A stretch of 64,000 bases of DNA from Minisyncoccia bacterium (GCA_038207395.1 JBBQZW010000003.1:18131-82130); one strand, 5' to 3'. Shown: positions 26,587-39,502, numbered from the stretch's first letter. Made by a program: numbers and translations. The notes: generated by a model from the letters alone, not told the origin.

Positions 26587-27609
26587 ATGGATGACTCTCG
26601 TTTCTTTTCTATGAATCAACTCTGGCAATCACTTGCGTTCTCTGTCGTCATTGGTGGCGTCTTGGTAACCATTACAGGATATGGTCTTTCATTGATCTCA
26701 AAAGATGAGGGTACGCAGGCACGCACCGCTACTACCACGCAGGAAGTACCCACGCTTCCGGCAGCTGCCGTAGAAGCGGTATCAGCGCTTCCGGCAGCTG
26801 CCGTAGAAGCGGTATCAGCGCTTCCGACAGACCCGTTTACTACTCTTTCTCTTTCTGCTCAATCAGCCATAGTCGTTGATCTTTCCAATGGACACACGCT
26901 CTACTCTCAAAACGCTGATGCGCAGCTCCCCCTAGCTTCGCTCACAAAACTACTCACCGTATATGGCGCGCAGCGCGTCCTTTCTGACGCCTCACTCATT
27001 ACAATTTCAAGCACGTCACTTGCGCAAGATGGAGAGTACGGACTCACTGAAGGAGAAACATTTTCATACAAGGATAGCGCACGCCTAGCACTTACCGCCT
27101 CATCTAATGATGTTGCTCAAGCTATCGCTGAAGCTGCTGCTGCAGTTACCGGTCAAACTCCCGCACAGTTCATGCAGGGCGCTATCCGATCCGCAGGACT
27201 CCTTCATACGAAGGCTGCGAACGGAACTGGCCTTGATATCGACATAACAGAGGCGGGAGCATACGGAAGTGCGCGTGACATGGCACAGCTTGCGAATGAA
27301 TTCTATACTTCTGCTCCTGATATTTCTAAGGCAACTACAAAGCGCACGGTGTCGGTCACTTCGAAAGAAGGCGTAGCTCACACGCTTCCAAATACGAATC
27401 CTATAGTGTCATCGCTGACAGGAATTCTTCTTTCAAAGACTGGGTATACTGATCTAGCCGGAGGAAACCTGGTGGTGATCTTTGATGCCGGGATTAATCA
27501 CCCTGTCGCCGTGGTGGTTCTCGGCTCAACACGCGATGCGCGCTTTACGGATGTTACAAAACTTGTCCGCGCAACACGCGCATCACTCAGCACCCAACCT
27601 GCTCCATAG
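26587..27609 (+). CDS. D-alanyl-D-alanine carboxypeptidase (S11-like serine PBP), membrane-anchored
   Basis: N-terminal TM. AIVVDLSNGHTLYSQNADAQLPLASLTKLLT is an SxxK active-site motif. SSND matches the SxN motif. Confidence 0.7.
   Translation: MDDSRFFSMNQLWQSLAFSVVIGGVLVTITGYGLSLISKDEGTQARTATTTQEVPTLPAAAVEAVSALPAAAVEAVSALPTDPFTTLSLSAQSAIVVDLSNGHTLYSQNADAQLPLASLTKLLTVYGAQRVLSDASLITISSTSLAQDGEYGLTEGETFSYKDSARLALTASSNDVAQAIAEAAAAVTGQTPAQFMQGAIRSAGLLHTKAANGTGLDIDITEAGAYGSARDMAQLANEFYTSAPDISKATTKRTVSVTSKEGVAHTLPNTNPIVSSLTGILLSKTGYTDLAGGNLVVIFDAGINHPVAVVVLGSTRDARFTDVTKLVRATRASLSTQPAP
26755..26830 (+). repeat. in-frame 33-bp tandem duplication (2.3 copies) inside the DD-carboxypeptidase gene
   Basis: cttccggcagctgccgtagaagcggtatcagcg occurs twice exactly (26755-26787 and 26788-26820) plus a partial third. 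It encodes LPAAAVEAVSA twice. Confidence 0.85.
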
Positions 27610-27621
27610 GTAACTAAACAT

Positions 27622-28686
27622 ATGCTCTACTTTGAAGCCGCGCGCGTATTAATTCCCTTCATTGTCTCATTTTCTGTAGGCATTGTACTTGCACCGGTAC
27701 TTGCACACTATTTGTACAAATATAAGGCGTGGAAAAAGAAGGGAGGGAAAGGAAAGGGAATTGGTGACGGAAACGGCACGCCTCTTTTTGATAGTCTGCA
27801 CAAGGAACGCGAAGTTTCGACGCCGCGGCTTGGCGGTATCCTAGTCTGGACCTCAGTATTTACGACAGCGCTACTCCTTGCACTTCTTAGCTTCTTTATA
27901 GGCGGACCGTATTCTTCCCTAAACCTTGTTGACCGCGGGCAAACCTGGCTTCCGCTCTTTGCGCTTATCGTAGGAGGACTTACCGGACTCGTCGATGATG
28001 TTCTGGAGATTCGCACCTCAGCCGGAGGACTTTCTATGCGGTGGCGTCTGCTTGTGGTGGCCGTCTTCGGTGCGTTTGCCGGATGGTGGTTCTACGCAAA
28101 ACTTGGTGTTTCAAGTATCGGTGTTCCATTCTTTGGTGCTATTCCTCTTGGTGGGTTCTTTATTCTCTTTTTCGTACTTGTAACCCTAACCCTGTATGCC
28201 AGTGGTGTTATTGATGGCATTGATGGTCTGGCGGGTGGCGTCTTCTCCATCATCTTTATGGCGTATGCGGGGATTGCCTTTGCTCAAAACCAAGTCTCGC
28301 TCGCCGCATTCGCTGCCACGGTCTCAGGTGCCACGTTTGCCTTCCTTTGGTTCAACATTCCTCCTGCACGCTTTTATCTTTCGGAAACAGGTTCAATGGC
28401 CTTAACCCTTGCACTTGCCGTTACAGCGTTTTCTGCAGACTCACTTGGAGACGGAGTTGGCGTCTTTGTCCTGCCAATTATTGCGCTCCCCCTCTTTGCC
28501 ACGGTAGTCGGGAATGTACTCCAGGTATTCTGGAAAAAAGTATTTAAACGCAAACTCTTCCGTATTGCTCCTATTCATCATCATTTTGAAGCAATTGGCT
28601 GGCCTGCATATAAAGTAGCGATGCGGTACTGGATTGTAACTATCCTTGCCGGTATCTTTGGCATTGCTATCGCGCTTTTGAAGTAA
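27622..28686 (+). CDS. mraY: phospho-N-acetylmuramoyl-pentapeptide transferase
   Basis: Polytopic membrane protein with DD motif (GLVDDVLEI) and APIHHHFE. Confidence 0.93.
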   Translation: MLYFEAARVLIPFIVSFSVGIVLAPVLAHYLYKYKAWKKKGGKGKGIGDGNGTPLFDSLHKEREVSTPRLGGILVWTSVFTTALLLALLSFFIGGPYSSLNLVDRGQTWLPLFALIVGGLTGLVDDVLEIRTSAGGLSMRWRLLVVAVFGAFAGWWFYAKLGVSSIGVPFFGAIPLGGFFILFFVLVTLTLYASGVIDGIDGLAGGVFSIIFMAYAGIAFAQNQVSLAAFAATVSGATFAFLWFNIPPARFYLSETGSMALTLALAVTAFSADSLGDGVGVFVLPIIALPLFATVVGNVLQVFWKKVFKRKLFRIAPIHHHFEAIGWPAYKVAMRYWIVTILAGIFGIAIALLK

Positions 28687-28708
28687 GTTCTAACCTCACT
28701 CTGCCAGC
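28685..28708 (+). repeat. copy 0 of the AAGTTCTAAC...CAGCCAG repeat family; overlaps the mraY stop codon and sits at the left junction of the insertion
   Basis: taAGTTCTAACctcactCTGCCAGC. It shares AAGTTCTAAC and the CAG..CCAGC tail with the six internal copies. Confidence 0.6.
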
Positions 28709-30186
28709 ATTTCTGAAAAGGTAGGGTTTTGAGGTGCTAAAGCGAATATGTTGTACGGTGATTTGTATTGTATTTCCTCGATATTTCTATTGAGCAACAT
28801 AGAGTTCGATAGTGCTTCTGAGAGTATTTCTCGCTTTCGGTCAGGAAGTGCTGTCTTGTATTCATCCGCCAAGGAATTACCTTGTTTAAACTTAGAATAG
28901 ATGAGTTCGATAGTTGCGAGAGGGTCATGAGCTTTCTTCTCTAGTTCCTGCATGCGCTTGGTGAGCCGTACACTTTCATTATCAATTTCCTTTAATTTGG
29001 CTCTGTAGAGCTCGGTGTCTATGTCTCCCTCGGTGTAGGTGTCTACAAGCCTAGACTTGCGTGTAGTGAGCAATTTGAGGGCTTTCTGAGTATCTTCCAA
29101 GGCATGGTCTTGAGTACCTTTTGAATGATGTAGTTCTTCGAGCTTCGCTTTATAAACGATATCAATCATGCGCTGGCTAATCTTGAGCTTATTGAGGTCG
29201 AGAGTTATTTGTTTGTGGAGTTCAATTTCATTGGCATTGAATGAACGTTGATCGCAAATGCCTTTACCATTAGTGCAGTGATAGTAGATATATTTCTCTT
29301 TCTTGAGTTCAGCAGTAATGGCACAACCGCATTGAGCGCAGGTCATGAAGCCGGAGAGCGTGAACGAAAGAGTCTTGCCTCGTGGTTTGCTTTTCTTAGC
29401 ACAAACTTCCTGGCACTTCTGAAATAGTTCGGATGAAATAAGTGGCTCATGATTGCCTAGATATTGAATGCCATTTGATTCCATGATGCCGCAGTAGAAG
29501 GAACTAGTGAGGATTTTCTGTATACCAGATTTATATACTTTCTTGCCGGAAGAAGTGCGCAGTCCTTGTTCAAAGAGTGTCGTAGAGATTGATTGATGGC
29601 CGTGGAGCCCTGTAGCGTACATTTCAAATATCTTTTGGACGTAGGGAGCACGTGCAGTGTCTAAGGCAATAGTCTTGTTTACTTTGTCGTTTACATATCC
29701 AAAAGGAGCACGGTTAATCCAGTCGCCTCGCTTTAGTTTTTCTCTATTTCCTCGCTTAACATTTAAACTTTTCTGATCGTTCTCTAGCTTTGCTTGGGAA
29801 CACAACATCATGAGCATGAACTTGCTGTTTGGGTCGTTCTTGAATTCTTGGGAGTACGTTTTGACTGAAAGTAGTTTTCCGCTGTCCATGAGGTCTACAA
29901 GCTTTCCTAAGTCTCCTGCATTACGCGAGAGTCTGTCAGGAGCCCAGGTGAGTATTGAGTTGTACAAGCCAGAATTGATACCAGCTATCATGCGATTGAA
30001 CTCAGGGCGCATGTCAGCTTTCTTTGCTGAGTGAGATTCTCTAATTATCTCTACAACATTCAGTTCATTACGTTCTGCAATACGCTTCATCTCATTTTCC
30101 TGAGCGTCCAAGGACATTATTTGTCGCTCCTCGCTTTCTGAGGACTTACGAATGTATAAGACATAGTTTTCCATAGATAGGCGCAT
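28696..30186 (-). CDS. large serine recombinase (phage-type serine integrase)
   Basis: N-terminal resolvase catalytic domain YVLYIRKSSESEERQIMSLDAQ, a recombinase domain, a zinc ribbon (CAQCGC...YYHCTNGKGIC) and a C-terminal coiled coil. Start overlaps Rep stop by 1 nt (TAATG). Confidence 0.88.
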   Translation of the reverse strand: MRLSMENYVLYIRKSSESEERQIMSLDAQENEMKRIAERNELNVVEIIRESHSAKKADMRPEFNRMIAGINSGLYNSILTWAPDRLSRNAGDLGKLVDLMDSGKLLSVKTYSQEFKNDPNSKFMLMMLCSQAKLENDQKSLNVKRGNREKLKRGDWINRAPFGYVNDKVNKTIALDTARAPYVQKIFEMYATGLHGHQSISTTLFEQGLRTSSGKKVYKSGIQKILTSSFYCGIMESNGIQYLGNHEPLISSELFQKCQEVCAKKSKPRGKTLSFTLSGFMTCAQCGCAITAELKKEKYIYYHCTNGKGICDQRSFNANEIELHKQITLDLNKLKISQRMIDIVYKAKLEELHHSKGTQDHALEDTQKALKLLTTRKSRLVDTYTEGDIDTELYRAKLKEIDNESVRLTKRMQELEKKAHDPLATIELIYSKFKQGNSLADEYKTALPDRKREILSEALSNSMLLNRNIEEIQYKSPYNIFALAPQNPTFSEMLAE

Positions 30187-31097
30187 TATGCTCTTTCTGG
30201 GTAATTCCTCAAATCGAGAGATTCAGCAGTTTCTACTGAGTCGATATAAATCTCAGTCATTCGTCGTTTAAGCTGTTGTAGGTTCTCGTTCTTTTTGTGA
30301 AAGTCAAAAGAATCTTCAATTGAGTTAGGTGCAGTGAAAACTATAAACGGTGAATTGAGAGCTACGAATCCGCCTTTCAACTGAAGATTAAAAGGGTAGC
30401 GATCAGCGATTTGCAGTAGTTGTGCAAAGGGAACGTTTCCTTCTCGGAAGTCGTCAAACAAAAGACATTCGTCTTGTTGATACCCTGTACCTGGCCAGTG
30501 ACCATCTGATACGGAACAGATTTCAGTAAAGTTTCTGTATACAAGTGAGGTTTTTCCGACGCCTGTATTTCCATATATCCAAAATACCTTGGGTGGTATG
30601 TTTTGGTCGCGATGTCTTAAATAAATTGGCTGAAGACACTGGGCATAGCGAAGTTGCTGTTGGTTGTTTGCAAACTCATCAATAATTTTATTGAGATCTT
30701 TAGGATTTGCTTTAATAGCTTCTTTGATTTCGCTCATGTCAGTACGAGAACCTTGTTTGCTGGGTTCCCCAAACACAAAGAAGTTTCCATCCTTTTGCGT
30801 ATACGTCTCATTTGTTTCAACACTGCCATTTGCTTTTTCTACATGGAACTTGAGTAGCTCTCCATTTCGAGTGAAGTTTAAATATTTTTGTAGATATGGA
30901 ATACGCTGAGCATTCTTAAGTTCAATATATCCCTGAATGTGAGGAGTTCCGTTTTCTTCACCAATCTCCAAACCGTAGCTAATGTAGTAATGATTTTCTA
31001 ATAAAGCGGCAAGAACGTGTAATCTCTCCAAGTCCTCCTGGGAGTAATTGTTGATAGTAAAACAGTATCTACGGCTTTTAATCTGTTTCTTCTCCAT
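30186..31097 (-). CDS. rep: rolling-circle replication initiator Rep, CRESS-DNA-virus type (HUH endonuclease + SF3 helicase)
   Basis: Motif I CFTINNY, motif II PHIQGYIEL, motif III YTQKDG, Walker A GNTGVGKTS, Walker B LLFDDF, motif C FTAPNS. ATG at 31097; an upstream TTG at 31112 gives the track ORF. Confidence 0.85.
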   Translation of the reverse strand: MEKKQIKSRRYCFTINNYSQEDLERLHVLAALLENHYYISYGLEIGEENGTPHIQGYIELKNAQRIPYLQKYLNFTRNGELLKFHVEKANGSVETNETYTQKDGNFFVFGEPSKQGSRTDMSEIKEAIKANPKDLNKIIDEFANNQQQLRYAQCLQPIYLRHRDQNIPPKVFWIYGNTGVGKTSLVYRNFTEICSVSDGHWPGTGYQQDECLLFDDFREGNVPFAQLLQIADRYPFNLQLKGGFVALNSPFIVFTAPNSIEDSFDFHKKNENLQQLKRRMTEIYIDSVETAESLDLRNYPERA

Positions 31098-31119
31098 ATT
31101 AATTTTGTCCAAATGTCCC

Positions 31120-31149
31120 GAAGTCGGGGGTAATACTATCCCCGACTTC
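31120..31149 (-). other. origin-like stem-loop: 10-bp GC-rich stem with nonanucleotide TAGTATTAC in the loop (minus strand), 23 nt upstream of Rep
   Basis: Plus strand: gaagtcgggg-gtaatactat-ccccgacttc. Minus strand reads GAAGTCGGGG-ATAGTATTAC-CCCCGACTTC. The loop contains the NAGTATTAC nick motif of circo- and nanovirus origins. CCCGAC-containing direct repeats flank it. Confidence 0.6.
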
Positions 31150-31357
31150 CGTGGCGCGGTGCCGGACTAAAGTCCCGACACTCGCCCCGTCCCCAAACAA
31201 GCATCGAATGAGCGAAGCAAGGTGCAGTTGAGCATCATCCGCAGAAACGGCCACGCCTTGGGTGGCGGCCATTTCTGCCTGATACTCCTGAATTAGTGCC
31301 GTACTAAAATGCATTAGCCCACCCTATAAAAAAGGAGAGTGAGTATGGGTGAGAGGT

Positions 31358-32224
31358 TTAGTGAGGATGCTCTAAGTACCGTTCGTGCACGGCGAGGTGG
31401 TCAGCATGAACGCTGAATATTTGAGAGAGTCGTGGGTGCTTTTTAACAAAGCGATTGAGAGCATCTTTATACGATATCTTCTCCGCTTTCATTTTGTTTT
31501 GCTCAAACTCCGGTATGTCGGTATAGTCTATTCTGTTTTCACTGAACTGGTTGAATAGAGCCTTGAGCGCAAAGTGTTCCTTGTTGGGTTTGTTTTGATA
31601 TCCAACTGATACAGTTTGATCATCAAAGTGGAATTCATACCTTTCAGGGTCATACCAAATACCGGCATCTTTAACATCTTCAAAAGAAATGCCGTTATTC
31701 ATTTTCTCTAGTAATCGCTCAATACTTCTAAAGGGCGAAAGGACAATGGTTGCTACAACCTCAGGAGGGTTTCCTTTTATCGCATCTCTCGCGGCATCAA
31801 GAACATCTTTTATATTCATGTCGTTCTCTAAGAAGACTTCTTTAGGAATGAATATGTTTGCGGGTATCGTTTTCTCAATCATGTCTGTACCAGCTAAGTT
31901 TAGTGCTTCAACAAAGTCAGTTGTATCTAGATTCGCAAGTTCATTGAGAACTTTTTCATAGTTTTCATCAGCTAGAAACTTCTGAATCTCAGGGTGAGCT
32001 TTCTGTTCGAATACATAGAAGCCAACGAGATATCCTTTGCTATCAAGTTGGGTAAGGGTGTTCAAAAATACAGGAACGGTTAGAGCGGACAAGTTGATAT
32101 GCTCGTACGTGATTCGGAGCGTATGCTGCTCTTCATCCTTAAGATGGGGTACTTGTTTCCGTGCATGGAAAAGAAGCCTTAAGACGTTGAGGACAGCTAG
32201 TATGTTCTGCTCACGAGGGGTCAT
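31358..32224 (-). CDS. hypothetical protein of the mobile element (288 aa)
   Basis: No recognisable motif and no Arg-rich capsid-like N-terminus. AT-rich like Rep. Confidence 0.5.
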   Translation of the reverse strand: MTPREQNILAVLNVLRLLFHARKQVPHLKDEEQHTLRITYEHINLSALTVPVFLNTLTQLDSKGYLVGFYVFEQKAHPEIQKFLADENYEKVLNELANLDTTDFVEALNLAGTDMIEKTIPANIFIPKEVFLENDMNIKDVLDAARDAIKGNPPEVVATIVLSPFRSIERLLEKMNNGISFEDVKDAGIWYDPERYEFHFDDQTVSVGYQNKPNKEHFALKALFNQFSENRIDYTDIPEFEQNKMKAEKISYKDALNRFVKKHPRLSQIFSVHADHLAVHERYLEHPH

Positions 32225-32248
32225 ATGGGGATATTGTATAGTTATTGC

Positions 32249-33028
32249 ATGAGTTTAGAAGGACCACCACGCAAAAAGAAAACTTTCTATGAAATTCTAG
32301 GAGTAGGCGCTGATGCTTCTGATAAAGAGATTAGTGAATCTTTTAGAGAGCTTTCAAAGAAGTTTCATCCTGATAATCAGGAAAGTGGAGATGAGGAAAA
32401 GTACAAGAAAATCTCTGAGGCGTATACCGCTTTAAAAAAACCAGAATCAAGAGACAAATACGATACTCAACGAGGTCATAGTTCTGCATCAGCTAGCCCG
32501 GGAGCTACACGCCCTACATATGAGGCACGAAAACCACGGGTTATTAATCTCACGATTGAGACTAATAATGGTAAAGCCTTTATAACCAAAGAGGGTAAGC
32601 GAATTTCTAAAGAGTATGACGCAATACAAAAAGCAAAAGAAGGTATTGCTGATTTTTATATCGGTATTCTACCGAACCAAGTAGATATTTTTAATCCAAA
32701 TGGAATGTTTGATATTGTTGAAGCAAGTTATAAATCCATTGAATACAAAAATGGAATTCTGGTTGGTAAAAGCCTTTATGGGAATAGTGAAAGCCTCTTG
32801 AGTTTAAAGAGTGGAAAAGAAGTCATTGGAGGTTACACAGAGTTCAATCTAATCGACGGCCATATTGTCGGAACTAATATGTACGGCACGGGAGTTGATG
32901 TAATTGATTCTAAGACCGGATTACCCATCTCGCATAATTTTAAGACGATTGAGATAGAGGACGGCAAGCTAGTTGCAACAAGTTGGGACGGGAAGAAAGG
33001 CAGGGTTTCCGTTGAGAAAAAGAAATAA
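32249..33028 (+). CDS. J-domain (DnaJ-like) protein with C-terminal glycine-rich repeat domain
   Basis: TFYEILGVGADASDKEISESFRELSKKFHPDN is a canonical J-domain with HPD. C-terminal repeats YKNGILVGKSLYGN / LIDGHIVGTNMYGTG. ATG at 32249 preferred over 32225. Confidence 0.7.
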   Translation: MSLEGPPRKKKTFYEILGVGADASDKEISESFRELSKKFHPDNQESGDEEKYKKISEAYTALKKPESRDKYDTQRGHSSASASPGATRPTYEARKPRVINLTIETNNGKAFITKEGKRISKEYDAIQKAKEGIADFYIGILPNQVDIFNPNGMFDIVEASYKSIEYKNGILVGKSLYGNSESLLSLKSGKEVIGGYTEFNLIDGHIVGTNMYGTGVDVIDSKTGLPISHNFKTIEIEDGKLVATSWDGKKGRVSVEKKK

Positions 33029-33045
33029 TCCCTTTTCAATATACC

Positions 33046-33074
33046 CTTGACATATTCATGTAAAGGGTATATAA
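33046..33074 (+). promoter_or_regulatory. consensus sigma-70 promoter (TTGACA-17-TATAAT) embedded in a 9-bp inverted repeat
   Basis: cccTTGACAtattcatgtaaagggtaTATAATc, with tataccctt...aagggtata arms. An RBS GGGAGA precedes the ATG at 33108. Confidence 0.5.
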
Positions 33075-33107
33075 TCTTTACAAGTTCATTCAATTGGGAG
33101 AATTACA

Positions 33108-33356
33108 ATGACTCAGGCAAGTTTTGTGCTGGAAGACATCGGTTCGGAAAATCGAACCTATGAATTCAGTCAGGACATCGATTTCGCGCCTTACAATGGT
33201 ATGAAGATCGATCTCGGCAATGCTCCGCCCTGCTACGTGCACTCAGCTGTGTACAGGCTGGACGAGCGGAGCTGGAACGTTCGCCTCAAGCCACGGCACA
33301 ATGAGCAAAAGCCCGAGCCTGGAGAGCTTGAGCGGCTCGGGTGGAAGACCTATTAG
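33108..33356 (+). CDS. hypothetical small protein (82 aa), GC-rich cassette-like gene
   Basis: ORF with RBS. GC content is clearly higher than the flanks. A hairpin terminator follows at 33362-33389. Confidence 0.45.
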   Translation: MTQASFVLEDIGSENRTYEFSQDIDFAPYNGMKIDLGNAPPCYVHSAVYRLDERSWNVRLKPRHNEQKPEPGELERLGWKTY

Positions 33357-33401
33357 CTCGAAGCCCCGCTGCAGAAATGTGGCGGGGCTAATTCATTAAT
33401 A

Positions 33402-33430
33402 GAGTTCTAACATCGACCCAGACAGCCAGC
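33402..33430 (+). repeat. copy A of the 28-bp repeat
   Basis: gAGTTCTAACaTCGACCCAGACAGCCAGC. Confidence 0.7.
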
Positions 33431-33529
33431 ACCAAACCACAAAGCCCCATATGTACGTGCTAAAAGAAAGAGGCGGCCCGAAGGTCGCCTCTTTGCGCAA
33501 ATTATCCGGTGCGCATTATTTCGGAATGG

Positions 33530-33865
33530 TCAGGCTTTGAAATATTTGCCTTGCGCACGGGCTTCTCCCCTGGTCTTCCACCCATCTTCACGAAATCCAT
33601 CGTAGTCGTGAGCATACACGTAGAAGTAAAGGGTGATGTTCGGGGTCCCGTCCTCATGGCGCCAGTGGAAAATCTGCGAGACCTCATCTGCCATATCGTC
33701 GCCGAGCTGGAACATTTCGGCTTCGCGAGGAAGAACTGGCCACTCAAACTCCTTGAAAATTGGCTCGAGATCGAGCTTTTCTTTGTCCTCGCAGAATTTT
33801 TCTCCAATACGAACACAAGCTACAAACTTGATCATGTAATCCTCCATCAAAAGAGCTGGGTACAT
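33530..33865 (-). CDS. hypothetical protein (111 aa; may start at the internal Met near 33835)
   Basis: GGAGG RBS upstream of ATG at 33865. A hairpin terminator lies downstream at 33466-33495. Confidence 0.45.
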   Translation of the reverse strand: MYPALLMEDYMIKFVACVRIGEKFCEDKEKLDLEPIFKEFEWPVLPREAEMFQLGDDMADEVSQIFHWRHEDGTPNITLYFYVYAHDYDGFREDGWKTRGEARAQGKYFKA

Positions 33866-33899
33866 ATTACGTCATTAAACATATATTGTCAAGTATAAA

Positions 33900-33927
33900 A
33901 AGTTCTAACGTCGACCCAGACAGCCAC
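33900..33927 (+). repeat. copy B of the 28-bp repeat
   Basis: tataaaAAGTTCTAACGTCGACCCAGACAGCCAcg. Flanked by TTGTCAAGTATA and CTTGACTTATAC. Confidence 0.7.
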
Positions 33928-34020
33928 GGATAAGAAACTTGACTTATACTATATTTCATGCCATCTTATATACAGCGAATTTAAGGAATAAGTTAACCCT
34001 TTCACCTTACGGAGGTCTTT

Positions 34021-34206
34021 ATGCCCGAAGTTCAGAACACTCGCATGTGCGCGACCCCTACTTGCCGCACTCCGGTTACCAACCCGCAGTCAGGTTACTG
34101 CGATTCATGTCTTGAGTTCGATCAGCTGACTTACGACCTTGAAACAGCTCGTTTCCAGCAAGAGCTGGCCGATGAGGATCTTCAACGTTTAATGCAAGGG
34201 GATTAG
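34021..34206 (+). CDS. small zinc-ribbon protein (61 aa)
   Basis: CATPTCRTP...CDSC (two CxxC pairs). A GGAGG RBS lies 7 nt upstream. Confidence 0.45.
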   Translation: MPEVQNTRMCATPTCRTPVTNPQSGYCDSCLEFDQLTYDLETARFQQELADEDLQRLMQGD

Positions 34207-34270
34207 CGGTGCGAATGGAACCCGATCACGCTTTTGGCGAGGTCGGGTTTTCTCTATTTAGAGGTATAAA

Positions 34271-34296
34271 AAGTTCTAACGTCGACCTAAACAGCC
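34271..34296 (+). repeat. copy C of the 28-bp repeat (diverged tail)
   Basis: tataaaAAGTTCTAACGTCGACCtAaACAGCC. Confidence 0.65.
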
Positions 34297-34344
34297 TTGA
34301 AGTAAGAAATTCAAAAGGGAGACCATTGCTGGTCTCCCTTGGGT

Positions 34345-34605
34345 TCAGGAACGAACCCGATTTGCTCCTTCTCCTTCCGCGCCGGTTCCAGCTAGAGCGA
34401 AGATCCATGCCATGACACACAGAACGGGATTTGTGTGCCAGTAGTAGGTTGTCCCGAGGAATGCGGCAAGTAGGCGTGGACAGAAGAGCCACGCCAACCA
34501 GCTCAAGATGCCGAACGGTGTCACCACCGCAAACAGCATCGTGAGACGCGGACAGAAGAGCAGAAAGAATAGAAAGAGCCAGCCGTGGTTTGCCCAGAAG
34601 TCCAT
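34345..34605 (-). CDS. small hydrophobic membrane protein (86 aa)
   Basis: Strongly hydrophobic. RBS GGAGG before the ATG at 34605. Bidirectional hairpin gggagaccattgctggtctccc at 34318-34339. Confidence 0.4.
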   Translation of the reverse strand: MDFWANHGWLFLFFLLFCPRLTMLFAVVTPFGILSWLAWLFCPRLLAAFLGTTYYWHTNPVLCVMAWIFALAGTGAEGEGANRVRS

Positions 34606-34676
34606 GTGAAATCCTCCCTGAATAGGCGATAGCTGAGACTATATTAGCATCATTCATAGTACTTGTCAAGTATAAA

Positions 34677-34705
34677 AAGTTCTAACGTCGACCCAGACAG
34701 CCAGC
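34677..34705 (+). repeat. copy D of the 28-bp repeat
   Basis: cttgtcaagtataaaAAGTTCTAACGTCGACCCAGACAGCCAGC. Confidence 0.7.
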
Positions 34706-34731
34706 GAAAAGTATTTATTCTTGTTAATATT

Positions 34732-35124
34732 ATGTTGATGACAGAAAGTAATGTGCAGGACCAAAAACAAATGACACTTTGGGCAGCCGAATGTGCTGAA
34801 CACGTACTTTCATACTTTGAACAGGAACGGCCTGGAGACATGAGGCCGCGATTAGCGATAGAAGCAGCGCGCGCGTGGGTAAAGGGTGAACTAAAAGTTA
34901 GCGAGGCTAGGACTGCTGCGTTTGATGCTCATGACGCAGCACGCGAGGTAAAAACAGACGCAGCTATCGCTGCGGCGCGTGCAGCAGGCCACGCTGCAGC
35001 TACGGTCCATGTCATAACTCATGCTCCGCACGCGGCAGAGTATGCCGTGAAGGCTGCCGAAGCCGCGAGTATTACAGGTGAACGTAAGTGGCAAAAGACG
35101 CGCGATCAGGTATCAAGAATGTAA
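34732..35124 (+). CDS. hypothetical Ala-rich protein (about 131 aa)
   Basis: Start chosen at the internal ATG (MLMTESNVQDQKQ...) of ORF 34663..35124, because the upstream part overlaps repeat copy D. Confidence 0.4.
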   Translation: MLMTESNVQDQKQMTLWAAECAEHVLSYFEQERPGDMRPRLAIEAARAWVKGELKVSEARTAAFDAHDAAREVKTDAAIAAARAAGHAAATVHVITHAPHAAEYAVKAAEAASITGERKWQKTRDQVSRM

Positions 35125-35125
35125 T

Positions 35126-35154
35126 AAGTTCTAACGTCGACCCAGACAGCCAGC
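35126..35154 (+). repeat. copy E of the 28-bp repeat
   Basis: gtaatAAGTTCTAACGTCGACCCAGACAGCCAGC, directly after the stop codon. Confidence 0.7.
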
Positions 35155-35704
35155 AATGTTTTAAAATAAAATTCAAACAGTGAAAAAGAACGCTACTTTA
35201 GAACCGATAATATAAAAAGGTCCGTGACTTTCGCCACGGACCCTAAAAAGTGCAGATACTTTACTCAATCGCCTGCGCTAAAGACTCGCTTTCGCTGCGC
35301 CTACACCTAACGGCTTAAGCTTGCAAAGATCTGCTGGGACAGCATTTAGGCTTGGAAGATTCCGAGTGACCAATTAGGCATGGTTTCAGATCTCCCTTGT
35401 TCGACTCTTACGAGCTCCTCGGCTCAAATGAATGGCTTTGGAATATGAGCTCTGCCGAGGCTCACACCTACTCTGTAGCTTTCGCCTCATCCACATGCGC
35501 AGTATCCTGCTCATGTTTGCGGGTACGGGACGGAGCCCTTATGGAGGACCCTCCTCTATGGATTTCCCCTGGATTATCGATATGCTAAAGGCCTGGACCG
35601 GTTTCAATATACGGCACTTACTCCCGGTATCTCGGTTGATGTCCACGCTGTCCAGTATTAAGAATACTTCGACTCTAACAGCTGTCAATGTGAGGATGTG
35701 AGGA

Positions 35705-35732
35705 AAGTTCCAACGTTGTCCCAGACAGCCAG
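35705..35732 (+). repeat. copy F of the 28-bp repeat (most diverged)
   Basis: AAGTTCcAACGTtGtCCCAGACAGCCAG. Confidence 0.6.
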
Positions 35733-35740
35733 TGCCACTC

Positions 35741-36115
35741 CTAAATCTTTCGTGCTCCTGTAGGAAAGGTTGTTATCCGTCGAGTAATTAATCCTGTAGC
35801 TCCAAAGTAAAAGTATTCTTGAAATTGAACATCCACCGACTCGCCGTTTTTAAGTGAGCCAGAAAATCTTCCCGTTGTTGATACTGCGTTTGGCAGCGTT
35901 GTTACAAGAATATCGGTATGCGTTCCATGCGCGATTATCCTTTCTTCACTATAGAATTTTTTAAACGCAGTCATTCCTTGGAGTGGAGTAGTGCCATCCC
36001 GCAAGTATTCGATCTCATTATCAAATAATGCATAGAGTGATTTGTAATCACCTTCGTCAATATACCGGTAGTAGTTCAGTACGGCTTCTTTCCACAAAGT
36101 GGCCTGCTCGCTCAT
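35741..36115 (-). CDS. NTF2-like / SnoaL-like superfamily protein
   Basis: MSEQATLWKEAVLNYYRYIDEGDYKSLYALFDNEIEYLRDGTTPLQGMTAFKKFY is a typical SnoaL-like N-terminus. Confidence 0.5.
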   Translation of the reverse strand: MSEQATLWKEAVLNYYRYIDEGDYKSLYALFDNEIEYLRDGTTPLQGMTAFKKFYSEERIIAHGTHTDILVTTLPNAVSTTGRFSGSLKNGESVDVQFQEYFYFGATGLITRRITTFPTGARKI

Positions 36116-36200
36116 AGATATAGTATATAACCTCTAGGGCAGAGCTTTTATGTGATATCCGTAGCCCTACTTTGTTAGTAATGCACTATACTTACTCACA

Positions 36201-36404
36201 ATGAGCACCGAGACCCATTTTATAAACGAGCTTGGCAACACTATTCATATTCAAGTTGAGGAACAAGAAATACAGGATCATCCAGGCATCCTGATTACTA
36301 TTACAGGGCCCGACTCTACCTCTACTAACCACATTACGTGCGAAGAAGCTGAGGTTTTGCAGGGACTGCTTTCTAAAACACTACATATCAGTAACTCAGA
36401 CTAG
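36201..36404 (+). CDS. hypothetical small protein (67 aa)
   Basis: ORF only. Confidence 0.3.
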   Translation: MSTETHFINELGNTIHIQVEEQEIQDHPGILITITGPDSTSTNHITCEEAEVLQGLLSKTLHISNSD

Positions 36405-36446
36405 TTAGAGTAGTTTGGTTTCGCATTCGTTTGCTAGAATAGGGGA

Positions 36447-37559
36447 ATGAAAGTTACAGGAGACAAGATCTTTGCGAGTATTGTACTCATCTTAGTGATT
36501 GGAGGTATTGCGCTCTTTTCCTCAGCGGCGCTTGGGCTTCTTGCACGTGTTGATGGCTCTCCCTGGAGGCTTGTTATTTCTCAAATCGGTCTTGGGCTTA
36601 TCCCCGGCTTTATACTCCTCACCGCTTTTCGTTTTCTACCTCAGAAACGACTCGCTCAATTCATTACACCTTTTTACGTAGTGACTATTATCCTTACGCT
36701 CATTGTCTTTATTCCGCATATCGGCCTTACCTTAAACGGTGCACGGCGATGGATTAATCTCGGGTTTACTACCTTTCAGCCAAGCGAGTTCCTAAAGCTC
36801 AGTGTTGTGCTCATGCTTGCAGCGTACCTCGCTCATGCAAAAGGAAAGATCAAAGAAATTCGCACAGGACTTGTACCATTTGGGGTCATTGTTGGGATTC
36901 CGTGTGCGCTACTTCTTTTTCAGCCAAATACTTCAACGGTATTAATTATTGGCTTAACCTCGGCAACCATGTACTTCCTTGCAGGAGCACCGTGGCGGGA
37001 CTTTGCCATCATGGCAGTTGCGAGTGTTGCGTTACTTGTTGTGCTCGTTATCGCGCGCCCGTATCTTATGGAGCGCGTTACCACGTTCATAAATCCTAAA
37101 AACAATGCGCAAACAAGCGGGTACCACATTCAGCAGTCACTTATCGCTATTGGATCTGGAAAAATAACGGGCCGGGGGTTTGGACAAAGTGTACAGAAGT
37201 TTAATTACCTTCCGGAAGCTGAAAGCGACTCAGTATTCGCCGTATACGGAGAAGAGTTTGGATTCTTAGGTACCGTTCTGCTGGTTATGCTTTTCATTGC
37301 CTTTGCGTTGCGAGGACTTATTATTGCCGGTGAGTCGTCTTCACTATTTGGTTCATACGCAGTTACCGGTCTGACCCTTTTGATTACGTTCTCGGCATTT
37401 ATGAATATTGGGGCATTGCTTGGCATTCTCCCCTTAACCGGACTTCCGCTCCCATTCATTAGTCACGGAGGAACGGCACTTATGGCCGCTCTTATGGCTG
37501 TGGGAATAATTCTCAACATCGCTGCACATCGAACAAAGCGAAAAACTCAGCTGGCATAA
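36447..37559 (+). CDS. ftsW: SEDS-family peptidoglycan glycosyltransferase FtsW/RodA
   Basis: Ten-TM profile, GFGQSVQKFNYLPEAESDSVFAVYGEEFGFLG and PFISHGGTALMA motifs. Confidence 0.9.
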   Translation: MKVTGDKIFASIVLILVIGGIALFSSAALGLLARVDGSPWRLVISQIGLGLIPGFILLTAFRFLPQKRLAQFITPFYVVTIILTLIVFIPHIGLTLNGARRWINLGFTTFQPSEFLKLSVVLMLAAYLAHAKGKIKEIRTGLVPFGVIVGIPCALLLFQPNTSTVLIIGLTSATMYFLAGAPWRDFAIMAVASVALLVVLVIARPYLMERVTTFINPKNNAQTSGYHIQQSLIAIGSGKITGRGFGQSVQKFNYLPEAESDSVFAVYGEEFGFLGTVLLVMLFIAFALRGLIIAGESSSLFGSYAVTGLTLLITFSAFMNIGALLGILPLTGLPLPFISHGGTALMAALMAVGIILNIAAHRTKRKTQLA

Positions 37560-37561
37560 CC

Positions 37562-38329
37562 ATGAACATTATTTGTCTAAACATCTGGGGAGGCAGAGCA
37601 GGTAAGGAGAAATTACTCGCATTCTTTGAAACACATAAAGAAACTACTGATATTTTTTGCCTCCAGGAAGTTTGGTCAGACCGCTATGAGTTCCTTGAAG
37701 GAGCACTTGCCGGAGGCGTACCTATTAGCCACGACACTATTATGTCGTATGCACTCCAAGACATATGCGCCGTACTCCCTGATCATGTACCGTATTTCAA
37801 GCCAAGCTTCTTACATAGTTATGGACTGTGTATGTTCGTCCATAAAAAGCTAAACGTGATTGAAGAAGGTGATATATTCGTGCACTTTGCACGTGGGTAC
37901 ATACCTGAAGGTGATGTAGGGAATCACGCGCGCAACATGCAGTATGTGACCATAGAGACCGAGCTCGGACCTAAGACCGTTCTTAACCTGCACGGACTAT
38001 GGAATGGAGCAGGGAAGTCAGACTCAGATCAGCGCATCGTGCAGACTGACCGCATACTTAGCTTTATTTCTTCACTTTCAAACCCCTTTGTACTGTGCGG
38101 AGATTTTAATCTCTCCCCAGACACTGAGAGTTTGCAAAGAATTGAACGAGAAGGGCATCGAAACCTTATTTCCGAATATGGCATTACCTCTACCCGTACG
38201 AGTTTTTACACGAAGCCTGAGCGATATGCTGACTACGCATTTGTTAGTGAAGGAGTTGAAGTTCTTGGATTCGAAATACTTCCAGACGAAGTCTCTGACC
38301 ATGCACCGCTTCGCATCGAGATTGCGTGA
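37562..38329 (+). CDS. endonuclease/exonuclease/phosphatase (EEP) family protein
   Basis: IICLNIWGG...DIFCLQEV (N-terminal Mg-binding motif) and SDHAPLRIEI (C-terminal catalytic His) are EEP hallmarks. Confidence 0.75.
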   Translation: MNIICLNIWGGRAGKEKLLAFFETHKETTDIFCLQEVWSDRYEFLEGALAGGVPISHDTIMSYALQDICAVLPDHVPYFKPSFLHSYGLCMFVHKKLNVIEEGDIFVHFARGYIPEGDVGNHARNMQYVTIETELGPKTVLNLHGLWNGAGKSDSDQRIVQTDRILSFISSLSNPFVLCGDFNLSPDTESLQRIEREGHRNLISEYGITSTRTSFYTKPERYADYAFVSEGVEVLGFEILPDEVSDHAPLRIEIA

Positions 38330-38347
38330 TATACTGGCCTAAACCCT

Positions 38348-39502
38348 ATGAAAATCGTTTTTGCCGGCGGTGGAACCGGCGGCCATTTCTATCCCATAAT
38401 CGCAGTCGCTGAAGCGATCCGCGACATAGTGCGCGAACAAAGACTCATCCCCCCTAGTCTGGTGTACATGGCCCCAACACCCTTTGATCAGGAGGCGCTT
38501 TTCCAAAACGATATTTCATACCGCCCCATGCCCGCGGGGAAGGTTCGTCGTTACTTCGCAATTTCAAATATTACTGACTTCTTTCGTACGATATACGGTT
38601 CAGTATTTTCATTCTTTGTACTTCTTGCTGATATTCCCGATGTTGTTTTTTCTAAAGGAGGATTTGCAAGTGTGCCGGTTGTCCTAGCAGCACACTGGCT
38701 TGGTGTGCCTATCGTTATTCATGAATCTGACTCAAAGCCCGGACGCGCTAATTTGTTTGCAGCAAAATATGCAGAGCGTATTGCCGTAACGTACGAAAGC
38801 TCTATAGAGTATTTTCCTGTGGCAGTACGTAGTAAAATAGCGCGCGTTGGAATTCCGATACGTGCCGCACTAGCGCATCCTCTACCTGAAGGCGCAGCTC
38901 AGGAACTAAAACTTGACCCCAGTGTTCCAACCGTACTTATCATTGGGGGCTCGCTCGGATCAAAGCGCATTAACGACACGGTTATTCAAGGTCTCCCTCA
39001 GATACTAGAGTTTGCAAACGTTATTCACCAAACCGGAAAAAATAACTTTGCCGAAGTACAATCCACTGCAGGAGTGCTCTTAGAGAACTCTATGCACAAG
39101 GAACGCTACCACGTATTCCCGTATCTCTCTCAGGACTCAATGCGCGAAGCAGCGGGAGCAGCAGCACTCGTCGTATCGCGAGCGGGCAGTACTTCTATTA
39201 CCGAAATTTCACTTTGGGGAAAGCCAGCAATTCTTATTCCCATCCCCGAGACAGTAAGTCATGATCAGCGAACAAATGCGTATGCGTATGCGCACACGGG
39301 AGCCGCTATCGTGCTTGAGGAAGATAACCTCACGCCTAACATTGTTGCATCAGAGATTCGCCGTATTACAGCAGACCATGCTCTTAGTGCACGCATGAGC
39401 GAACACAGTAAGGGTTTTGCAAATCCACAGGCAGCTCGAGTTATTGCTGAGGAACTTTTGCGAATTGCTCGTTCTCACACTCCGAAAGAGCCTGCAGTAT
39501 AA
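38348..39502 (+). CDS. murG: undecaprenyldiphospho-muramoylpentapeptide beta-N-acetylglucosaminyltransferase
   Basis: MKIVFAGGGTGGHFYPIIAVAEAI is the MurG N-terminal G-loop. GT28 C-terminal domain. Confidence 0.9.
   Translation: MKIVFAGGGTGGHFYPIIAVAEAIRDIVREQRLIPPSLVYMAPTPFDQEALFQNDISYRPMPAGKVRRYFAISNITDFFRTIYGSVFSFFVLLADIPDVVFSKGGFASVPVVLAAHWLGVPIVIHESDSKPGRANLFAAKYAERIAVTYESSIEYFPVAVRSKIARVGIPIRAALAHPLPEGAAQELKLDPSVPTVLIIGGSLGSKRINDTVIQGLPQILEFANVIHQTGKNNFAEVQSTAGVLLENSMHKERYHVFPYLSQDSMREAAGAAALVVSRAGSTSITEISLWGKPAILIPIPETVSHDQRTNAYAYAHTGAAIVLEEDNLTPNIVASEIRRITADHALSARMSEHSKGFANPQAARVIAEELLRIARSHTPKEPAV

Follow-up and report, generated by a model that had tools for sequence, protein, structure and literature searches.

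What are the repeats that punctuate the DNA between mraY and ftsW in this Minisyncoccia bacterium, and which enzyme acts on them? We examined a 64,000-nucleotide stretch of its genome (GCA_038207395.1 JBBQZW010000003.1:18131-82130; here called the window), in which a 7.76-kb segment (28687-36446) separates mraY from ftsW and contains all of the repeats. An initial annotation of this DNA had described seven same-strand copies of a 28-bp repeat bounding small open reading frames (ORFs) and had likened the layout to an integron cassette array. We consider it probable (roughly three chances in four) that the repeats are attP-type half-sites, that is, attachment (att) half-sites of the serine integrase encoded beside them, and that the site at the mraY end is the matching attB-type half-site, a copy of the tRNA-Gln 3' end. 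On our best reading, the segment houses a Rep-bearing integrative episome whose integrase would build and reshuffle cassette arrays.

In the closest relative found (L105; other loci and contigs are likewise given L numbers), whose MraY and FtsW are 85% and 65% identical to those of the window, only a few bases lie between mraY and ftsW, and therefore the whole 28687-36446 segment is an insertion. From left to right it contains genes for the serine integrase, Rep, orf71, orf288, a DnaJ-domain protein, and a small ORF, followed by the repeat-bounded small genes and a SnoaL-like gene.

Two kinds of site beside a serine integrase

The 28-mer AAGTTCTAACGTCGACCCAGACAGCCAG matches the plus strand at 33402, 33900, 34677, 35126, and 35705 with no more than 3 mismatches (chance expectation, 0), and repeat finding adds a sixth, more diverged copy at 34271, giving six copies over 33402-35732; a profile search of the window placed no motif copies outside 33.4-35.7 kb. 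Successive copies lie 498, 371, 406, 449, and 579 bp apart, in agreement with the 370 to 580 bp first reported, and the shared upstream strings that had been noticed are present as well, GTATAAAAAG before three copies and TTGTCAAGTATAAAAAG before two. At the mraY stop codon lies a site that falls 5 bp short of the others in length and resembles the 3' end of tRNA-Gln. It had been counted, at 28685, as a diverged seventh copy. The site is real and related to the repeat but of another kind, apparently an attB-type partner rather than a decayed repeat, so that six same-strand copies of an approximately 30-bp motif stand. The two kinds of site, which we call B-type and P-type, and the integrase gene are located as follows.

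28687..28708, plus strand, B-type (attB-type) half-site GTTCTAACCTCACTCTGCCAGC, with GTTC-N14-CAGC geometry
33404..33430, plus strand, P-type site A, GTTCTAACATCGACCCAGACAGCCAGC (pattern match, repeat finding, and profile)
33902..33928, plus strand, P-type site B, with the central CA kept and followed by CGG (pattern match and repeat finding)
34273..34299, plus strand, P-type site C, decayed (CCTAAACAGCC), with CT and not CA at the center (repeat finding)
34679..34705, plus strand, P-type site D, putative right end (attR) of a 5,997-bp segment absent from contig L178
35128..35154, plus strand, P-type site E (pattern match)
35707..35733, plus strand, P-type site F, GTTCCAACGTTGTCCCAGACAGCCAGT, the final copy, more diverged than any other (pattern match)
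28696..30186, minus strand, large serine integrase of 496 amino acids (Pfam Resolvase, Recombinase, and Zn_ribbon_recom; PHROG integrase, E = 4.6e-84)

The P-type consensus, drawn from 272 sites, is GGTTCcAACATCGTCCCAGACaGCCAGCaa, and the B-type consensus, drawn from 82 sites, is GGTTCGA.tCCtaGtC.GcCAGCaa; in short form, P is GTTC-N19-CAGC and B is GTTC-N14-CAGC. The two match at 21 of 25 positions with a single 5-nucleotide (nt) gap directly after GGTTCnAA, a score reached by 0 of 20,000 shuffles. The zinc-ribbon-domain (ZD) motif of serine integrases has been placed at half-site positions 16 to 24 in attP and 11 to 19 in attB, a 5-bp shift (PMC3783163). Judged from the consensus sequences, the 5-bp relation between B and P appears to be this published attB/attP half-site relation of large serine integrases, and by that geometry the crossover dinucleotide would fall in the shared GCCAGC; in the B-type site, the crossover interval was assigned to GCCAGC at 28703-28708. 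The integrase carries the catalytic (Resolvase), Recombinase, and zinc-ribbon domains expected of large serine integrases. The flanking repeats are not partial tRNA copies, being 5 bp longer than the tRNA end, and L167 has no second copy of the tRNA end.

Site and integrase gene are also physically joined. The integrase stop codon sits within the B-type site, and in five related elements (65 to 92% identity) the integrase gene terminates at ..CAGC/A.. of one of three kinds of site: a complete, opposite-strand tRNA-Gln (L167-169), a bare tRNA-Gln fragment of the B type (L164-166, L172-175, and L089, as in the window), or a P-type site (L170-171). The junction between B-type site and integrase end is the same in the window as in L164, L167 (where the tRNA-Gln is complete), L172, and L174, and P-type copies lie on the far side of the element, in the tRNA orientation. 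A more distant integrase relative (48% identity) has no such site. Because the site at 28687-28708 is of the B type, the window reads B, episome, six P sites, and the B-type site would be the left junction (attL) of the integrated episome. Beside the P-type site of L170 (11473-11512), the integrase ORF is 13 codons longer (503 versus 490 amino acids by called gene lengths), and therefore the C-terminal tail of the integrase appears to depend on recombination state. More than 70 clusters of integrase homologues were found at an identity of at least 60%, and the few with a named source are labeled Paceibacterota or Patescibacteria.

An exact look-up of MraY returned a single contig, L178, which is 1.5 kb long and comes from a public run (SRR19962014) of the same strain. 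L178 is 100% identical to window positions 27224-28708 and then to 34700-34729 (L178 bases 1480 to 1509), and the join falls in GCCAGC, six bases shared by both sides. It thus joins the B-type site to the sequence after site D, and 5,997 bp, comprising the episome and three cassettes, are absent. L178 probably represents an attB-like allele (B/Imm5), and the window the corresponding integrated state (B/integrase...P(D)/Imm5). The hybrid attL and attR expected of a conservative crossover at a short common core are found when the L178 junction is set beside the two window junctions, B/integrase end and P(D)/Imm5. The contig ends exactly 30 nt past the final position at which the B and D paths differ, the point where an assembly graph with a k value of 31 (an assumed value) would merge the two. 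The join itself has only a 6-bp repeat, and therefore graph assembly could not have created it.

Other identities for the motif were considered and set aside. The window variant at 33902-33927 resembles Escherichia coli 23S rRNA at 2193-2208 (15 of 16 positions) and at 1043-1055 (13 of 13); a 23S rRNA origin of the 28-mer was nevertheless judged to be a chance likeness, since the family consensus fits worse (12 of 16 in the left half, by hand comparison) and Ruegeria 23S rRNA lacks both segments. A dif/Xer site, an alternative sigma promoter, a CRISPR-like repeat, and an HUH nick site were rejected because, by eye, the motif has no dyad symmetry, sigma-type spacing, or hairpin. A true tRNA 3' half was rejected because the motif departs from tRNA geometry, sits one register off, and exceeds the tRNA-Gln end by 5 nt, and a crossover in the GTTCnAAC block was rejected because the distal site of L167 is a full P-type motif and L178 puts the crossover in GCCAGC. 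Chance matches aside, no Rfam family matched the island, whether at the gathering threshold or at an E value of 10 or less; a weak Hammerhead_HH9 match at 29256-29326 inside the integrase gene (19 bits, E = 0.57, well below the gathering score) was taken as chance. The motif had 0 matches in viral contigs, and the sole match in phage and plasmid collections was a 23S fragment in one of the cassettes.

Arrays across Patescibacteria and their cassettes

A search with a degenerate 24-mer pattern matched 54 places in 185,579 species genomes and 107 in metagenomes, giving 161 loci. The genome matches are nearly all in named metagenome-assembled genomes of Patescibacteria, the candidate phyla radiation (CPR), including Saccharibacteria, Paceibacterota, Kaiserbacteria, and others; the remainder carry generic labels or, in one case, the label "Pseudomonadales" on isolate HK-STAS-PATE-16. 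The core GTTCCAACATCGTCCCAGACAGCC, followed by AGCAA, is almost invariant, and the flanks are unrelated. By profile search, arrays contain 1 to 8 copies, on one strand in every array, at a median spacing of 543 bp (range, 211 to 2877 bp). A B-type site (GTTC-N14-CAGC) lies upstream of the first P-type site on the same strand in 79 of the 161 loci, compared with 7 to 9 in three control positions, and 31 of the 161 have a complete tRNA-Gln on the same strand a few hundred bases upstream of the first motif. The anchor in the window is only the 22-nt tRNA-like fragment after mraY. Such copies of the tRNA-Gln 3' end, as long as a half-site and with nothing tRNA-like upstream, head arrays at non-tRNA places (window 28687-28708, L164 at about 11488, L172 at about 11480, and many other loci).

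In the window, the intervals between sites A and F each hold one small ORF, in the alternating orientation that the initial annotation had reported (-, +, -, +), except for the last, which holds none. The description of this array as GC rich applies only in a relative sense (GC of 0.47 to 0.50, versus 0.40 to 0.43 in the integrase module).

33530..33865, minus strand, cassette gene c111, whose own -35/-10 promoter abuts site B
34021..34206, plus strand, cassette gene c61, an ORF with the Shine-Dalgarno sequence GGAGG
34345..34605, minus strand, cassette gene c86 (from the ORF list)
34732..35124, plus strand, cassette gene for an Imm5-like immunity protein (Pfam Imm5_like, E = 6.8e-40)
35155..35704, no strand, noncoding cassette with no ORF and no Rfam match, holding the 23S fragment

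Distant homologues of c111 occur inside other arrays (L036, L138, and L142) with the relative orientation kept. The noncoding cassette carries, at 35281-35324, a 44-nt antisense piece of 23S rRNA that is 100% identical to 23S genes on alphaproteobacterial plasmids (about nt 625 to 668) and looks like a captured rRNA gene fragment. Exact-protein look-ups of the integrase, Imm5, c86, and c111 gave no match.

Beyond the window, the proposal that the repeats delimit gene cassettes of variable content was borne out. The 75 in-array ORFs matched 44 Pfam families, none more than 2 times, and almost every one of these ORFs is without a homologue in the remaining loci, whereas the genes flanking the arrays are common to several. 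At one chromosomal place, the interval between genes for an M23 peptidase and an AlkA-like protein (L003, L004, L005, and L029), the content and number of cassettes differ completely, and L012 and L043 have arrays of different content at a shared locus; cassette content thus varies between related genomes. L003 and L033, two different arrays, contain a homologous cassette. A search for additional clean gains or losses of cassettes between nearly identical loci found none. The cargo includes immunity proteins, acetyltransferases, nucleotidyltransferases, NUDIX hydrolases, HAD hydrolases, and methyltransferases. Packing is tight: genes on the motif strand begin approximately 22 nt past one site and end approximately 4 nt ahead of the next, and opposite-strand cassette genes have a terminator and their own promoter. 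In Paceibacterota-type arrays (L012, L036, L038, L042-L044, L047, L049, and L053), cassette genes look leaderless, with a -10-like TANNNT box (often TGn extended) 8 to 12 nt past the site, an ATG 6 to 7 nt farther on, and no Shine-Dalgarno sequence.

The chromosomal genes at either end of the island, and the gene between site F and ftsW, are as follows.

27622..28686, plus strand, mraY, left chromosomal flank (Pfam Glycos_transf_4)
35741..36115, minus strand, SnoaL-like gene (Pfam SnoaL_2, below the cutoff), not present in L105
36447..37559, plus strand, ftsW, right chromosomal flank (Pfam FTSW_RODA_SPOVE)

The surrounding division and cell wall (dcw) gene cluster (26587-39502) is itself unusual in lacking murD between mraY and ftsW, in having a D-Ala-D-Ala carboxypeptidase gene ahead of mraY, and in having an exo/endonuclease/phosphatase gene between ftsW and murG.

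A putative episome, a model of array formation, and its alternatives

Upstream of the integrase gene on the minus strand lie three further module genes, followed by cargo on the plus strand.

30186..31112, minus strand, Rep, with an HUH Viral_Rep domain and a superfamily-3 helicase (Pfam PF02407 and PF00910)
31099..31314, minus strand, orf71, a small conserved module gene with homologues in L164, L167, L170, L172, and L174 and no family match
31358..32224, minus strand, orf288, a conserved module gene with homologues in relatives and no Pfam or PHROG match
32225..33028, plus strand, DnaJ-domain protein (Pfam DnaJ), episome cargo not conserved in related elements
33108..33356, plus strand, small ORF c82, cargo (from the ORF list; no family match)

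Rep resembles those of circular Rep-encoding single-stranded DNA (CRESS) plasmids. It adjoins the integrase in relatives without exception and is presumably the replication initiator of an excised circle. The suggestion that this HUH enzyme acts on the repeats found no support; nothing implicates it, and it belongs to the conserved replication module of the episome. All five integrase relatives keep the orf71-Rep-integrase core, most with an orf288 homologue ahead, and orf288 homologues (30 to 67% identity) lie beside Rep and integrase in L167, L170, L172, L174, and L176. The four-gene module orf288-orf71-Rep-integrase is common in Patescibacteria (window 28696-32224; L164, L167, L170, L172, L174, and L176). 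Serine integrases are switched to excision by an accessory protein, the recombination directionality factor (RDF), and one possibility is that orf71 is a candidate for this role. Between the DnaJ gene and c82 lies a strong hairpin (33039-33072; 15-nt arms, 93% complementary, 4-nt loop) that overlaps a TTGACA/TATAAT-like promoter. Related episomes carry defense-type cargo (L167 5465-7858, L174 3359-4666, and L172 7040-7690), namely, a ThsB-like TIR gene with SLATT/DUF4231, a PycTM gene with a cyclase (Pycsar-like), and a PIN-domain gene.

Two kinds of site with a 5-bp relation, in fixed order and orientation, the linkage of these sites to the integrase, and one precise natural B × P recombinant support the earlier suggestion that the repeats are recombination sites of the neighboring serine integrase, and they lead to the following model. 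The orf288-orf71-Rep-integrase module would constitute an integrative, self-replicating episome. In its circular form, which Rep would presumably replicate, attP would consist of a P-type motif that runs, at ..GCCAGC, into the 3' end of the integrase gene; for the window, the predicted circle junction between P(D) and integrase end is ..GACAGCCAGC/ATTTCTGAAAAGG. The chromosomal partner of the episome would be a B-type site, whether a real tRNA-Gln or a fragment as long as a half-site, and recombination would give B/integrase...cargo...P/host, with the P arm left as attR. Each event would add DNA beside B with a P-type site on its far side, so that arrays would come to read B-c1-P-c2-P-.... Excision could use any P to the right of the episome, a nearer P leaving cassettes behind and a farther one removing them, and this variable choice would account for integrase-less arrays and for the fast turnover of single-gene cassettes. 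In no site does conservation reach into the sequence right of the crossover, and therefore each B/x junction may be a reusable target and each P/x junction an excision partner. The model takes this integrase to catalyze all of the events and presumes that it tolerates any right-hand half-site; alternative choice of P would then explain cassette shuffling.

Several points weigh against this reading. No RDF was identified for the element, a single recombinant junction was found, and none of the circular kind was seen. In the textbook case, att sites of serine integrases have approximate two-fold symmetry; in the present sites, conservation ends approximately 5 nt past the center (left half and CAGCAA only), and the integrase-side arm has no inverted GGTTCnAA. 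The integrase of L170 lies beside a P-type and not a B-type site, which canonical attP × attB rules do not predict, and the model does not explain how B-type fragments were seeded at non-tRNA places such as the mraY stop codon. Finally, approximately 155 of the 161 loci have no integrase within the sequence at hand for them, and therefore the integrase must be assumed to act in trans or to have been excised in the past.

The scarcity of integrases, the placement of the L170 integrase beside a P-type site inside an array, and the one-armed look of the sites would also fit arrays built by some other recombinase, with the serine-integrase episome only landing on the motif. Serine-integrase elements of this kind are said to exist: the PLE satellites of Vibrio cholerae reportedly insert into integron repeats. 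PLE and the present element are alike in sitting within a repeat-delimited cassette array, but in Vibrio, IntIA makes the array and the repeat that the element targets is foreign to it. In the flanks of 54 of the present loci, no other family of recombinases recurs, the 5-bp B/P relation is specific to serine integrases, and the P-type site is element borne while the B-type site is chromosomal (L167 and L178); the array motifs would therefore be the integrase's own attP arms and not a foreign site, and we regard construction by another recombinase as unlikely. It is distinctly unlikely that there are no cassettes as such and that the arrays are what remains of whole episomes integrated repeatedly at one site, through tandem accretion and then deletion, the small genes being leftover cargo. 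Tandem integration with leftover att repeats is known for tRNA-anchored islands (bioRxiv 10.1101/2020.12.28.424599), and one P-type site in L164 is indeed followed by a remnant of the integrase 3' end. However, the pattern expected of such remnants (the end of a P- or B-type site, then the integrase 3' end) matched 0 of 161 loci, integrase or Rep homologues are present in only about 6 of 161, a homologous cassette recurs in different arrays (L003 and L033), and the trimming of genes to the sites is a packing that random deletion would not yield.

A role for the motif in transcriptional control of accessory genes, as an operator or upstream promoter element rather than a recombination site, would account for the -10-like box and leaderless ATG that follow it in many arrays, and opposite-strand genes can draw a TTGGAA -35 box from the motif's left end. 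This explanation is very improbable: approximately one-third of copies, including A, C, and E of the window, are followed by a terminator and a convergent gene, promoter distance varies by lineage (L008 versus L036), and the B-type partner, the tRNA-Gln anchor, the integrase junction, and L178 are left unaccounted for. Hardly tenable is a classical or degenerate integron (attC and IntI) or a generic repeat of the repetitive extragenic palindrome (REP) or miniature inverted-repeat transposable element (MITE) type, although small, promoter-poor genes are arrayed between repeats. The attC-like secondary structure that the integron comparison had raised is absent, as the consensus motif and 81-nt windows around three copies fold, on both strands, no better than shuffles (z scores of -0.8 to +1.3). 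The absence of an IntI-type integrase, already noticed, extends from the island, which has no Phage_integrase match, to the recurrent families flanking 54 loci, which include no tyrosine recombinase. As for a REP or MITE, genomes do carry the motif at several loci, but the copies lie in oriented single-strand arrays and are not scattered in both orientations.

Comparison with known systems and implications

The closest mechanistic parallel is the model for the integrases of Listeria phage A118 and LI (Rutherford et al. 2013, PMC3783163), which has in common with the present system a three-domain integrase, an integrase gene beside attP, a distal 8- to 9-bp block displaced by exactly 5 bp, a shared crossover region, and hybrid junctions (B/integrase end and P/host). 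Here, in contrast, each site has one conserved half, B is either the 3' end of a tRNA or a bare piece of that end, as many as 8 P-type sites are arrayed together, and the integrase stop codon lies within the site. Tycheposons (Hackl et al., bioRxiv 10.1101/2020.12.28.424599) likewise combine an integrase and a replication module with cargo, integrate next to tRNA genes, push older DNA outward with successive integrations, and leave att repeats in the island. The present repeats, by contrast, are attP-type arms and not partial tRNA copies, the units are single genes (0.2 to 2.9 kb) without an integrase, the hosts are Patescibacteria, and tRNA-Gln, whole or as a fragment, is the anchor in every case. 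Accretion is familiar from streptococcal integrative and conjugative elements (ICEs) and cis-mobilizable elements (CIMEs), in which an autonomous element and nonautonomous att-flanked units accumulate in tandem and can depart jointly; these are large elements with a tyrosine integrase and form no single-gene cassette arrays.

With integrons, the arrays share tightly packed, mostly single-gene cassettes, hypervariable cargo, one site polarity, and units apparently added at one end. They differ in having a serine and not a tyrosine integrase, short unstructured duplex sites in place of folded attC hairpins, an integrase borne by a Rep-encoding episome that occupies a cassette-like place in the array, and many cassettes with a promoter of their own. 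The system therefore lacks the defining features of an integron, IntI and a folded attC, but has its variable array of single-gene cassettes, and it departs from known serine-integrase elements in that its single-gene cassette arrays are bounded by attP arms. No prior description of such arrays was found in the literature searched, the coverage of which was incomplete. We tentatively suggest, at slightly short of even odds, that this is a serine-integrase counterpart of the integron in Patescibacteria, in which only one specific half-site is needed (B on the chromosome and P on the mobile DNA), single-gene cassettes are swapped by the choice of P at excision, and hypervariable arrays arise, in many CPR lineages, wherever tRNA-Gln or a seeded copy of the half-site provides a target.

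For recombinase biology, the family would provide natural serine integrases with a well-defined, apparently one-armed pair of sites (the tRNA-Gln end, and the same end plus 5 bp), which is directly testable and could serve genome engineering. A GTTC-N14-CAGC site followed by GTTC-N19-CAGC repeats is, in addition, a simple signature for flexible-genome islands in CPR metagenomes. The CPR/Patescibacteria have tiny genomes and few recognized mobile elements, and their exchange of accessory genes is poorly known; if the model is true, the arrays would give these bacteria an integron-like route to rapid gene turnover.

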